Below, in pieces: positions 24,101-27,100 of a stretch of DNA of 32,000 nucleotides (position 1 is its first letter; the number at the start of each line of letters is the position of its first letter). The stretch covers positions 4,436,497-4,468,496 of the forward strand of contig NC_003902.1 of NCBI RefSeq assembly GCF_000007145.1, in the 5' to 3' direction. A program made the position numbers. The DNA comes from Xanthomonas campestris pv. campestris str. ATCC 33913 (GTDB lineage: Bacteria; Pseudomonadota; Gammaproteobacteria; Xanthomonadales; Xanthomonadaceae).

Positions 24101-27100
24101 CTTTCTGCTGTTCCTGGAGCAGCACCGCATCCTCGACGCCGACCAGCGCGAGCTGGTGCTGGACCGCGCCATGGCGCTGGACCAGGACGAACTGGATCTG
24201 GACGACCTCAAATGGGTCGTGTTGATGGTGCTGTTCAACCAACCGGGCGCCGAAGCGGCTTACGCCTGGATGGAAACGCAGATGTTCCTCGACGAGCCTG
24301 AACCCGTACACTGAAGGCAGAAGCCGCGACGGACGCGCGAGCGAGGGGACGGGGATGAGCAGTTGGTATTACGCCGATGGCAGCCGCCAGCGGGGTGGCC
24401 CGGTGGACGTGGAGGCGCTGCGGGGCTTGTACCGCGACGGCGTGATTGCGCTGGATTCGCTGGTCTGGCGCGAAGGTATGCCTCACTGGGCGCCGTTGGC
24501 TGCATGCGCCGCAGAATTGGGTCCACCGATCGCCACCGACGTGGCGTCATCGCCGCTGCCACCGCCGTTGCCGCTCACCGCTGTCGGCACGACCTCGGCA
24601 CGCCCCACCATCTCATCATCCACTCGTTCGACACCCGTCGCTACCTCGCGCAACGGTGCCGGCTGGGCGATCGGGATTGCGGTCGGGTCAGTGATTGGCG
24701 TGGTTGGACTGGCATTTGTGTTCGGCATCGTCGCTGCGATCGCACTGCCGGCCTATCAGGACTACACCGCGCGCGCAAAGGTCAGCCAAGCCATCGGCGC
24801 GTTGGCACCATTAAAGCCGCAGATCGCCGAATTTCTAGAACGCGAAGGCCGCTGCCCGACCAATGACGACGCTGGCTTCCATCCGCCGGAACACTATGCG
24901 ACGGGGACGTTGGGCATCGTGCGCATCGGCCACTTCGACACGGCCCAGTGCGGCGTGGAGGCCTTGCTGCACATGCCGGACAACGCCAAGCTCGACGGCA
25001 AACCGTTGTGGCTGGACCTGGATCAGGACGCCAGCAGCTGGGACTGCAGTTCCGAGATCGACGACAAATTTCTGCCGCAGGATTGCCGCGGCTAGGCAAC
25101 GGTTTTGACCAAGGGGACAGTATGACGCAGTGGTATTACGCCGACGCGCAGCGGCAACGCCAGGGACCGGTGGACACGGACACGCTCCGTGCGCGCCTGG
25201 AACAGGGCGTCATCGATCGTTCCAGCCTGGTCTGGCGCGAAGGCCTGGCGCAATGGGTGACGCTGGCGGAGGTGGCTGCCGAACTGGGGCTGGAGACGCC
25301 CGCCGCAACGCCCGAGACGGCATCGGTGTTCACGCCTGCGCCGATCACTGCAGATCCCTCGCCTGGCGCCGCGACCAGTGCCGAACAGGTGCCAGAGGCC
25401 GGGTTCACGCCGGTCACGCCCCAGACCACGCAGCCAGACAGCGTGTCGGCCGCGCACATTTCCACTCCCGTGGACGCCGGTAGCGTCGCCAGCTCCGCGC
25501 CGTCTCCTGGCGCCTGGTCGGCGCGTACTGCAGCCGAGCCCTCCGAACACCAGCCAGCCACCACCGCGTCCCCAGCCACACCGGCCCAGGCGACACCGTT
25601 GCCGGCCGCCTGGGACATGCCGGCGACCTCGCTCGGGGTTGCGCCGGTCGCGGACGCACCGATCGTCTACGCGGGCCTGTGGCGCCGGGTGGCCGCCAGC
25701 GTGCTGGACAGCTTCATCACCACGTTTGCGGTGTACCTGATCGTCATCCCGGTGGTCCTGGTGCTGTCGATCGGCCTGGGCGCCTCCAGCTCGTCGTCGA
25801 GCCTGGAGGGCGCGGGCGGCACCGTGGCGATCATGATCCTGGCCTATGGCATCGGCCTGCTGATCCCAACGATTTACTTCGCGTGGATGCAGTCCAGCCG
25901 CCACCAGGCCAGCCTGGGCAAGCTCGCCTGCGGCATCAAGCTGGTGCACGCCAACGGTGGCCGGGTCAGCTTCTGGCGCAACGTGCTGCGCTACCTGGCT
26001 TACATGCTGATCACGGTGCTGACGCTGGGCATCGGGGCGATCGTCTCGGCCTTCATGGCCGGCATGAGCGCACGCAAGCAGGCAATCCACGACAAGGTCT
26101 GCGACACCCTGGTGGTGGACCGCTGGGCCTACACCGACACGCCGGAACGCCAGCAGGTGGGCCTGGACACGGTCACCATCGTGGTGCTGGCGATCTACGC
26201 AGTGATGCTGCTGATCTCCATTGTGTTCGGCGTCCTGTTTGCGGTGATCGCCATCAACCAGAGTTGACAATCGCGGCGCAGGCCGCTTGACACGGCGGCG
26301 CTCGCCGTGATCTTTCTAATAAGAGAACTGAACGCCCGGGCACCTCCCCGGGCGTCGACGTGTGCGAAACAGCCGATCTGCTTCCCTCGACCGGCCAATT
26401 AGGCCACGCTACCTGCCCCCCGGGCTCCGCCCCAAGAATTTGCCACCATGCCCAAGCACCTGCTCATCGTCGAATCGCCCGCCAAGGCCAAGACGATCAA
26501 TAAATACCTCGGCAAGGACTTCACCGTCCTGGCCTCGTATGGGCACGTGCGTGACCTGGTTCCCAAGGAGGGCGCCGTGGATCCGGACAACGGGTTTGCG
26601 ATGCGCTACGACTTGATCGAAAAGAACGAAAAGCACGTGGAGGCGATTGCCCGGGCTGCCAAGAGCGCCGACGACATCTATCTGGCGACCGACCCGGACC
26701 GCGAGGGTGAGGCGATCAGCTGGCATATCGCCGAGATCCTGAAAGAGCGCGGGCTGCTGAAGGACAAGACGATGCAGCGGGTGGTCTTCACCGAGATCAC
26801 GCCCCGCGCGATCAAGGAAGCCATGCTCAAGCCGCGCGCGATCGCCGCCGACCTGGTGGACGCGCAGCAGGCACGCCGTGCGCTGGATTACCTGGTCGGT
26901 TTCAACCTCTCGCCGGTGCTGTGGCGCAAGGTGCAGCGCGGGCTGTCGGCCGGCCGCGTGCAGTCGCCGGCGCTGCGCATGATTGTCGAACGTGAAGAAG
27001 AAATCGAAGCCTTCATCGCGCGCGAATACTGGTCCATCGATGCGCACTGCCGGCATCCCTCGCAGCCGTTCAATGCGCGCCTGATCAAGCTGGACGGGCA

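Follow-up and report, generated by a model that had tools for sequence, protein, structure and literature searches.

The locus described here raises the question of what a pilin domain does in a protein that apparently cannot be processed into a pilin. It lies in a stretch of 32,000 nucleotides from Xanthomonas campestris pv. campestris str. ATCC 33913 (contig NC_003902.1, positions 4,436,497 to 4,468,496), which is referred to as the window. One gene in the window encodes a protein of 246 amino acids, in which a GYF_2 domain is joined by a linker and a transmembrane (TM) segment to a type IVa pilin domain; we call this protein GYF-TM-pilin. The initial annotation of the window viewed it as a membrane-anchored pilin head that does not polymerise. 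This view is supported by hidden Markov models, by the predicted fold, by a fold search and by the loss of the prepilin signal.

A type IVa pilin head without a prepilin signal

The open reading frame was found exactly where the initial annotation had placed it, on the + strand with an ATG start and 246 codons before the stop, and all other details of that description which could be checked were also correct. A putative Shine-Dalgarno sequence (GAGGGG) occurs ~8 nt 5' of the ATG. The orthologs share the start MSSWYYA. The coordinates of this gene, its domains and its neighbors are given in Table 1.

Analysis with Pfam identified two domains in the protein. The GYF_2 profile (PF14237) matches residues 4-50 with an E value of 3.1e-14 (52.9 bits vs. 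a cut-off of 25.8), and the Pilin profile (PF00114) is matched over its entire length (1-108/108) by residues 139-245 with an E value of 2.9e-19 (70.5 bits vs. a cut-off of 22). The 246-residue protein has no RDD match in Pfam, and no zinc-ribbon domain was found in either the Pfam search or the AlphaFold2 model. Searches against the sequences of solved structures gave the same picture. The gonococcal pilin 1ay2 aligns to residues 120-233 (E 2.9e-11), residues 9-142 of the PAK pilin 1oqw align to residues 119-244, and meningococcal PilE was also aligned to the C-terminal half. The N-terminus matches the GYF domain of Myxococcus xanthus GltJ/AgmX (7z3c, E 1.3e-6). NCBIfam returned only partial, sub-threshold matches (to GltJ in the region of GYF domain plus linker, and to PilA and PpdD in alpha-1), and no curated family for this architecture was found there.

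The details of the pilin part are those of a type IVa pilin. The alpha-1 stretch IVAAIALPAYQDYTARAKVSQAI, which had been noted as close to the pilin consensus, is identical to the gonococcal pilin in 19 of 23 positions. Pro132 corresponds to Pro22 of the pilins, and Tyr134 and Tyr137 are the equivalents of Tyr24 and Tyr27; all three are invariant in the alignment. The head contains the predicted Cys231-x12-Cys244 pair with the same spacing as in the D-region of PAK, and a second conserved pair, C167/C199, which is extra with respect to the PAK and gonococcal pilins. The proposed linker of ~45 residues, rich in Pro, Ser and Thr, is also present; residues 57-101 contain nine Pro, eight Thr and eight Ser, i.e. 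25 of 45 positions.

An AlphaFold2 model was built with a family alignment of 32 sequences. The mean predicted local distance difference test score (pLDDT) was 85, with values above 90 in the head, a confident GYF domain and disorder at residues 64-101. Residues 104-149 form a single unbroken helix. A Foldseek search of the model against the PDB gave full-length PAK pilin (1oqw) as the top match, with an E value of 1.2e-5 and a template-modelling score of 0.67 on the target. The next matches were the PAO1 pilus subunit, a pilin from A. baumannii and several GYF domains (GIGYF1/2, GltJ, Smy2). Profile, structural alignments and model thus agree that a complete type IVa pilin fold is present, as the initial annotation had read from the sequence.

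The part of a pilin that directs its processing is missing. At E <= 0.1 Pfam gave no match to N_methyl (PF07963) or a class III signal. When Pro132 is set as Pro22, position 5 is occupied by Gly115 and position -1 by Val110, so that the class III signal and Glu5 are both absent, as had been claimed. Ahead of the hydrophobic segment are some 103 residues, a folded domain among them. The uninterrupted hydrophobic segment of ~30 residues was also borne out: the protein is uncharged from N100 to Q135, between Arg99 and Asp136, and the uncharged run before Pro22 comprises 32 residues. The family median, determined from the 346 members with an intact N-boundary, is 29 residues, vs. 16 for canonical prepilins within this set. 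The mean content of acidic residues (D+E) in the TM segment is 0.0 in both alignments, and none occurs in the uncharged run.

The information content of the family alignment changes abruptly along the helix. At pilin positions 14-27, 30 and 31 it amounts to 3-4.3 bits (G/A14 I15 L16 A17 A18 I19 A20 P22 A23 Y24 Y27 R30), while positions up to 13 have 1.4-2.5 bits and are generically hydrophobic. This step at position 14 indicates that the family has dropped the part that serves PilD recognition, the Glu5 salt bridge and the filament core, and that it has kept the outer-leaflet or interface part of alpha-1 together with the whole head.

At the cytoplasmic end of the TM segment a G[CW] dipeptide follows basic residues in 245 of the 346 members (71%), often in the form GLSGC. 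In Xanthomonas the dipeptide is Gly103-Trp104 (24661-24666); it resembles a lipobox or prepilin site, but is on the wrong side of the hydrophobic segment.

We also considered that an internal start might produce a normal prepilin with a short leader. Among the internal ATG, GTG and TTG codons of the frame, none yields a short basic leader followed by G|F and E5. A scan for the same three codons found no in-frame start between residues 73 and 112, and the GTG codons 113, 116 and 122 are inside the helix, without leader, Gly-1 or Glu5. This candidate was therefore rejected.

The absence of a class III leader, of Phe1 and of Glu5, together with a folded cytoplasmic extension of ~100 residues, would make extraction and polymerisation impossible. 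Type IV pilins are defined by the class III signal and Glu5 as much as by the head, and to our knowledge every characterised member is processed and then either polymerises or primes polymerisation. Since GYF-TM-pilin fails on the class III signal and on Glu5, it should be filed neither as a type IV pilin nor as PilA.

Family, conservation and the smg-topA slot

The first homolog search resulted in 196 proteins, nearly all of them 220-260 amino acids long and composed of GYF_2 plus Pilin, from Xanthomonas, Stenotrophomonas, Pseudoxanthomonas and Lysobacteraceae. The closest homolog is 98% identical and also comes from X. campestris. In the databases these proteins are named "pilin", "pilus assembly protein PilA", "DUF4339 domain-containing" or "GYF domain-containing protein".

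The pilin part (residues 121-246) was then used alone in an exhaustive phmmer search, which gave 3106 cluster representatives (50% identity) at 1e-3 and 198 at 1e-10. Among the best 150 representatives, 74 have the architecture GYF + pilin, 16 GYF + RDD + pilin and six RDD + pilin. The other 54 appeared as "pilin only"; most of these are N-terminally truncated fragments of the same proteins, and a few are odd single-cluster fusions (P0121, P0129, P0237). Canonical prepilins with KGFTLIELM account for only 4 of the 150 closest representatives, which means that the nearest relatives of this pilin domain are almost all leaderless.

In a scan of one genome per GTDB species, the 600 pattern matches listed include full-length matches in Lysobacterales only (Xanthomonas, Stenotrophomonas, Pseudoxanthomonas, Lysobacter, Luteimonas, Arenimonas, Cognatilysobacter, Dokdonella, Rudaea and Pseudolysobacter). 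Pilins from other gamma- and betaproteobacteria in the same list match residues 112/122-246 only. The phyletic distribution traced in this way is that of a large family confined to the Lysobacterales.

The family alignment contains invariant residues in all three parts of the protein, and they hold down to ~35% identity. They are W4, Y6, P16, V37, W38, G41 and W45 in the GYF domain, A128, I129, P132, Y134, Y137 and R140 in the helix, and P168, G192, C199, W229, L240 and R245 in the head, where C167, C231 and C244 are conserved in at least 90% of the sequences. The ratio of nonsynonymous to synonymous substitution rates (dN/dS) between the X. campestris strains compared, which involves few substitutions, is 0.28-0.37 for the whole gene and ~0.27 for the head; the values for dprA and smg are lower (0.00-0.09). 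The gene clearly appears to be under purifying selection, and the number of homologs, the invariant residues and the dN/dS values together argue for a functional gene and not for a relic.

The linker also contains a conserved element. Of 185 GYF-pilin proteins, 64% have a motif PPP[LVIMAP]P ~8 residues past the GYF domain, compared with 2% of shuffles of matched composition; the corresponding values for GYF-RDD-pilin proteins are 35% and 4%. Judged from this enrichment, the PPPLP of the protein's own linker is a candidate ligand of the GYF domain.

Several fusions of the leaderless head occur as single clusters in metagenomes (P0174, P0121, P0129, P0099, P0104), namely GYF-pilin-TonB_C and fusions of MarC, DUF2955, a topA fragment or a Na/Pi-transporter fragment to the pilin head. 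The GYF-pilin-TonB_C protein, if real, would support a periplasmic head. The MarC, DUF2955, topA and Na/Pi-transporter fusions are possible assembly chimeras and were not used. The pilA3 gene of Xylella (PD1077) was likewise not used as evidence; its orthology was not established, and no Xylella protein appeared among the names of the best 120 homologs. Deletion of PD1077 lowers twitching and biofilm formation, and the gene is listed as "not in operon" (PMC9956873).

Next we analyzed the genomic surroundings of ~44 species-level loci with a GYF- or RDD-linked pilin head. The synteny is well conserved: in 32 of these loci the gene has smg upstream and topA downstream, and in five more smg is present and the downstream end is cut off. 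The position between smg and topA is kept down to 35% identity. Where related loci have complete flanks, these consist of LysM-dprA-smg on one side and RDD-topA on the other. An RDD gene or domain is adjacent or fused in 35 of the 41 informative loci.

In the window the gene for a GYF-RDD protein begins 26 bp downstream of GYF-TM-pilin. Pfam recognizes RDD (PF06271) with an E value of 1.9e-22 and GYF_2 with 6.2e-16, and the GYF domains of the two proteins are identical in 33 of 56 positions. No sigma-70-like promoter was found in 21000-29200, and the number of terminator-like sites in the same region was not above the shuffle expectation; it is thus the short intergenic gaps between dprA and the GYF-RDD gene (26-43 bp) which suggest an operon. 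A transcript dprA-smg-GYFpilin-GYFRDD, which ends at the hairpin past the GYF-RDD gene, is possible.

The slot between smg and topA is filled in different ways. It contains GYF-pilin alone in one metagenome-assembled genome each of Lysobacteraceae and Arenimonas, GYF-pilin plus one to three GYF-RDD genes in Xanthomonas, Stenotrophomonas, Pseudoxanthomonas and Luteimonas, GYF-RDD plus GYF-RDD-pilin in Silanimonas, RDD-pilin alone in Luteimonas terricola and Chiayiivirga, and GYF-RDD-pilin alone in Thermomonas and Ahniella. A search seeded with a GYF-RDD-pilin of 389 amino acids gave more than 1000 proteins at E <= 1e-10, including many GYF-RDD-pilin (370-450 amino acids) and RDD-pilin proteins (305-335 amino acids) from Arenimonas, Silanimonas, Rhodanobacter and Luteimonas. 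Fusions of both types are common in these four genera as well as in Thermomonas and Chiayiivirga.

The junctions in these proteins are very similar. All GYF-RDD proteins of the slot, including that of the window, end with ...VVDRWA(Y/F)TDxPERQ..., a TM segment of ~30 residues and a stop. This junction is also found in the fusions, where it is followed by the same kind of TM segment and then by the pilin head, and the GLSGC boundary of the Stenotrophomonas GYF-pilin recurs. The extra TM segment at the C-terminus of the GYF-RDD protein in the window (26160-26267) reads ...GVLFAVIAINQS before the stop. It sits where the RDD-pilin fusions continue into ...GILAAIALPAYQ and the head, and looks like the stump of a lost pilin head. 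In our view the three architectures arose by permutation of a single ancestral gene with three modules. The occurrence of split and fused forms makes the two Xanthomonas genes a "Rosetta-stone" pair, which is predicted to interact.

Table 1. Positions of GYF-TM-pilin, its domains and the neighboring features in the window.
Feature	Residues	Position	Strand	Remark
LysM protein		21380-22588	+	co-directional row
dprA		22661-23797	+	conserved left border of slot
smg/DUF494		23841-24314	+	conserved left border of slot
GYF-TM-pilin coding sequence	1-246	24355-25095	+	ATG start, 246 aa plus stop
GYF_2 domain, predicted cytoplasmic	4-50	24364-24504	+	Pfam E 3.1e-14, pLDDT 89-95
Disordered Pro/Thr/Ser linker	57-101	24523-24657	+	pLDDT <50 at 64-92 and 96-101
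PPPLP, candidate short linear motif	69-73	24559-24573	+	family enrichment vs. shuffles
TM helix continuous with pilin alpha-1	102-149	24658-24801	+	AlphaFold2, charge, conservation
Type IVa pilin head, predicted periplasmic	150-246	24802-25092	+	PF00114, Foldseek, pLDDT 93-98
GYF-RDD coding sequence (GYF_2, long linker, RDD, C-terminal TM)		25122-26267	+	381 aa; predicted partner
Terminator-like hairpin past GYF-RDD gene		26291-26309	+	consensus match only
Facing terminator-like hairpin		26356-26331	-	no obvious - strand gene needing one
topA		26448-28943	+	conserved right border of slot

Topology, proposed mechanism and alternatives

We infer an N-in/C-out orientation of GYF-TM-pilin from the head cysteines, from K/R-rich juxtamembrane segments and from the geometry of the RDD-pilin fusions. 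Throughout the family, the stretch that leads up to the helix has a net positive charge (K+R 1.6, D+E 0.1), and the four conserved cysteines of the head argue for an oxidising compartment. The fusions add a constraint. The AlphaFold2 model of a GYF-RDD-pilin fusion (mean pLDDT 88.8) contains TM helices at 88-120 and 135-161, a strand at 175-179, short helices at 187-202 and 206-212, a strand at 227-231 and a long helix at 248-292, which runs into the pilin head. The third hydrophobic segment consists of the two short helices with an invariant Arg. The mean K+R content of the fusions is 0.3 in the loop between TM1 and TM2, and 4.6 and 5.2 in the loops that flank the third segment. Because both flanking loops are rich in K/R they are probably cytoplasmic, which would make the third segment re-entrant; the last helix would then run from inside to outside, which would put the head on the periplasmic and the GYF domain on the cytoplasmic side. 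In a Foldseek search the head of the fusion matched N. meningitidis PilE, D. nodosus FimA and the gonococcal pilin over the full length; for the RDD part of the model the fold search found no solved structural relative.

The explanation which fits these data best, and which we consider probable, is that GYF-TM-pilin is a fixed, non-polymerising protein of the inner membrane, in which the pilin head, RDD and GYF modules act together as a trans-membrane adaptor. Of its elements, the domain content, the fold, the loss of the prepilin signal, the conservation of the family, the synteny and the fusions are shown by the data. The protein would be bitopic, its N-terminus being cytoplasmic and its C-terminus periplasmic. 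On the cytoplasmic side it would expose the GYF domain and a flexible tether with the PPPLP motif; the helix of ~30 residues would span the membrane and run straight into pilin alpha-1, and a disulfide-stapled type IVa pilin head would be presented on the periplasmic face. This would be one of three interchangeable arrangements of the GYF, RDD and TM-pilin modules in the smg-topA slot of the Lysobacterales. In Xanthomonas the modules are split over GYF-TM-pilin and GYF-RDD-TM, and the two proteins would most likely form one membrane complex. The head, together with the pilin-like outer-leaflet half of the helix (positions 14-31), would bind a partner in the envelope. The GYF domains would recruit a proline-rich cytoplasmic partner, which is possibly the protein's own PPPLP tether bridging both proteins.

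A more specific version of this model is that a pilin subunit has been turned into the periplasmic sensor or binding domain of a GYF-RDD-TM-pilin device. Positions 14-31 would then read the pool of pilins in the membrane or a component of the envelope, and the GYF/PPPLP pair would pass this information on to a partner in the cytoplasm. Such a role of the pilin fold in signalling, outside of a filament, would be the first of its kind; we propose this version tentatively, and it may well be wrong in this form.

Several points weigh against the adaptor explanation. Every functional step, including the complex with RDD and the partners proposed for head and GYF domain, is a prediction, and so is the topology, which is based on charge bias, cysteines and models. 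Three loci (L035, L040, L039) have a GYF-pilin without an adjoining RDD gene, which indicates that RDD is not an obligatory neighbor. The GYF-RDD protein of the window has no PPPLP motif, and the number of substitutions behind the dN/dS values is small. Furthermore, the near-invariant positions 14-31 fit a contact with real pilins or the machinery of type IV pili equally well.

This last point leads to an alternative in which the protein is a pilin mimic that regulates type IV pili. In such a case alpha-1 14-31 and the head would dock on PilS, PilC, PilN/O or PilA; the GYF domain would couple the status of the pilin pool or of the machine to a cytoplasmic partner, or the protein would titrate, cap or block assembly. 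The initial annotation had likewise suggested that the protein might cap, nucleate or sense the assembly of type IV pili or of the T2SS pseudopilus, or be a decoy; our data speak neither for nor against these roles. The head is a full PF00114 domain with its D-region, and the positions with 3-4.3 bits are near-identical to those of type IVa pilins, although in canonical pilins they lie off the head. PilA is reportedly autoregulated by PilS via the conserved N-terminal pilin segment in the membrane. However, positions 1-13 and Glu5, which are relevant to contacts with the machine and with PilS, are gone. The window contains no pil genes, and none of the ~44 species-level loci has a pil gene or a T2SS (type II secretion system) gene adjoining the gene. 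The same head is fused to RDD and is present in operons with MoxR and DUF58, for which we know of no link to type IV pili. In addition, no phenotype of the X. citri ortholog XAC3805 was found in the literature. We rate this alternative as rather unlikely.

The operons with MoxR suggest another role, namely that of an accessory of an envelope system with a MoxR AAA+ protein, DUF58 and transglutaminase-like proteins, in which the module of RDD and pilin head would serve as membrane anchor, substrate or sensor; in Xanthomonas the location between smg and topA would then be secondary. A GYF-RDD-pilin gene of Rhodanobacter (L006, 6001-7197) shares 4 bp with the start of a MoxR AAA+ gene, and this is followed by a gene for a 315-aa protein and by one for a TgpA_N/Transglut_core/DUF4129 protein. 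In Dokdonella, Pseudolysobacter, Rudaea and one metagenome contig, GYF-pilin is located ~30 bp behind DUF4129-DUF4350-MoxR-DUF58. The GYF-pilin loci with this context are divergent (L005, 5001-5690; L039, 4001-4705; L029; L030), and the context occurs only in a sub-clade composed mostly of Rhodanobacteraceae, some members of which have no D-region cysteines: among the sequences aligned, P0101 (the L005 gene of the metagenome contig), P0105 and the related P0110 have lost them and have kept C167/C199. Outside of the GYF proteins, no PPPLP-type motif was found in the proteins of the MoxR operons at L005, L039 and L006. Furthermore, in the 32 loci between smg and topA there is no MoxR gene nearby, and the window contains no MoxR operon. 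We regard an accessory role of this kind as improbable.

A third possibility is that the protein is an unusual substrate of PilD. A cut at Gly103|Trp104 would free a fragment with GYF domain and linker and leave a pilin without Glu5, in the manner of regulated proteolysis. The G[CW] dipeptide after basic residues is reminiscent of the K/R-G|F site of prepilins, and as far as is known Glu5 is not needed for cleavage. Yet several orthologs have another residue in place of the Gly (Ala in X. dyei P0010, Thr in X. vesicatoria P0017, Val in P0080), the boundary motif is missing in 29% of the members and there is no N_methyl or class III match; we also know of no precedent for a prepilin leader with ~100 folded residues. 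The replacements of the Gly in particular make cleavage at this site very improbable. Finally, the idea of a decaying pilA paralog or a gene-call artefact, which might be suggested by the names "pilin" and "PilA" in databases and by dN/dS values above those of dprA and smg, can practically be dismissed in view of the lack of a suitable internal start, an architecture kept in hundreds of proteins and synteny down to 35% identity.

The adaptor explanation therefore remains the one that we prefer. A whole order, with major plant pathogens and Stenotrophomonas among its members, has retained a pilin head without the class III signal and Glu5; with this head joined to cytoplasmic and intramembrane modules, the family amounts to an order-wide exaptation of the pilin fold. 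If the head does serve as an immobile binding domain in the periplasm, the pilin fold has a further use outside of filaments. The common and uncharacterised GYF_2 and RDD modules would then gain a tractable entry point, and the widespread misannotation as "pilin" or "PilA", which inflates the pilin counts in genome papers on Xanthomonas, could be corrected. The split forms in Xanthomonas and the fused forms in Silanimonas, Rhodanobacter and Luteimonas predict an interaction that is directly testable.

Other genes of the window and comparison with known systems

Besides the genes in Table 1 the window contains genes for a GAF protein, a YopJ-family effector, an IS3 transposase, rpoD, a lipid A acyltransferase, ribA, bPH_2 proteins, glycosyltransferases, Wzy_C, PMT_2, rsmB, fmt, def, Sua5 and a PAS-GGDEF protein. 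The YopJ-family Ser/Thr acetyltransferase (PF03421, E 3.4e-53; 2107-3189, - strand) is a candidate type III effector of the XopJ/AvrXccB type. An IS3-family transposase (rve/HTH_21; 3685-4539, + strand) lies ~500 bp from it, and this vicinity suggests a mobile effector island beside rpoD. Two bPH_2 membrane proteins are encoded by a pair of genes with overlapping stop and start (11033-11611 and 11608-13110, both + strand). The first of them contains the only other PPPLP in a real open reading frame of the window (VPPPLPD, ~residue 16), which speculatively could be a candidate ligand of the GYF domains. At the ends of the window are a PAS-GGDEF diguanylate cyclase (31049-31972, - strand) and the GAF protein (530-1390, - strand); nothing ties them to GYF-TM-pilin. 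Cyclic di-GMP signalling controls type IV pili in Xanthomonas.

The gene as such was known before. Its ortholog in X. citri 306 is XAC3805, and the family also includes a "DUF4339 protein" in X. vesicatoria and AZ78_3612 in Lysobacter capsici. XAC3805 was annotated as pilA in 2002. According to two papers (PMC10333488, PMC4960238, both citing Dunger et al. 2014) it has no prepilin leader and is unlikely to be a genuine pilin. It lies far from pilSRBACD (PMC10333488, PMC4960238, PMC6797930); the 2019 paper treats it as "another pilA" (PMC6797930), and one of the three mentions it as a possible minor or major pilin. These papers describe no phenotype or function of XAC3805, no topology of the GYF-TM-pilin kind, no RDD fusions and no smg-topA slot. 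The statement in the initial annotation that no function is known for such a chimera thus holds for the literature, but the gene was not unknown, since XAC3805 had already been flagged as leaderless. Our literature search found no paper that joins "GYF domain" and "pilin", though fig. S4 of Attia et al. 2024 might list such a fusion, and no description of RDD-pilin fusions, of the smg-topA slot or of a phenotype. Beyond this partial prior notice, the RDD-fused pilin heads in sister genera, the adjacency to RDD, the smg-topA slot and the MoxR-DUF58 context of the sub-clade are new.

Compared with the type IVa major pilins (PAK PilA, 1oqw; N. gonorrhoeae PilE, 1ay2/2hi2), GYF-TM-pilin shares the full PF00114 head, alpha-1 14-31, Pro22, Tyr24 and Tyr27 and the Cys-x12-Cys pair. 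Unlike these pilins, it has no basic leader, Gly-1, Phe1 or Glu5 and begins with ~100 cytoplasmic residues. Its hydrophobic run is ~30 residues long instead of 16, it has the extra Cys167 and Cys199, and its gene is not located with pilBCD or pilSR.

The overall architecture resembles that of GltJ (AgmX) from M. xanthus, which also has an N-terminal GYF_2 domain, a flexible proline-rich linker, one TM segment and an extracytoplasmic module; for GYF-TM-pilin the same orientation is predicted. The GYF domain of GltJ binds a proline-rich sequence of AglZ with micromolar affinity via a conserved beta-sheet face (Attia et al. 2024, PMC11135422). In bacterial proteins the GYF domain is usually located N-terminal to membrane-associated receptor modules, for which a trans-membrane relay was proposed, and ~44% of the bacterial GYF proteins have a zinc ribbon beside the GYF domain (PMC11135422). 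In contrast to GltJ, GYF-TM-pilin lacks the zinc ribbon, it has no Agl-Glt/MglA/AglZ context and its outer module is a pilin head. Apart from the zinc ribbon the protein has the architecture of a GltJ-type adaptor, and by analogy binding of a proline-rich ligand is predicted.

The RDD family (PF06271) is represented by the downstream neighbor and by the fusions in sister genera, and not by the 246-aa protein. Members of this family serve other proteins as partners or regulators in the membrane. The RDD protein SppI (YteJ) of B. subtilis inhibits the protease SppA (PMC7568657), and a conserved intramembrane binding site that faces the cytoplasm has been reported for the RDD domain (PMC12419801). 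A Na+/H+ antiport activity was reported for an RDD protein from Halobacillus (PMC5996927); this activity is not obviously related to GYF-TM-pilin. The literature that we searched does not describe an RDD protein with a pilin head.

A final comparison is with the sugar-binding proteins of the archaeal "bindosome", which carry a non-pilin head behind a class III signal peptide. These proteins are the mirror image of GYF-TM-pilin: there the pilin signal is attached to a head that is not a pilin, and here a pilin head occurs minus the signal.

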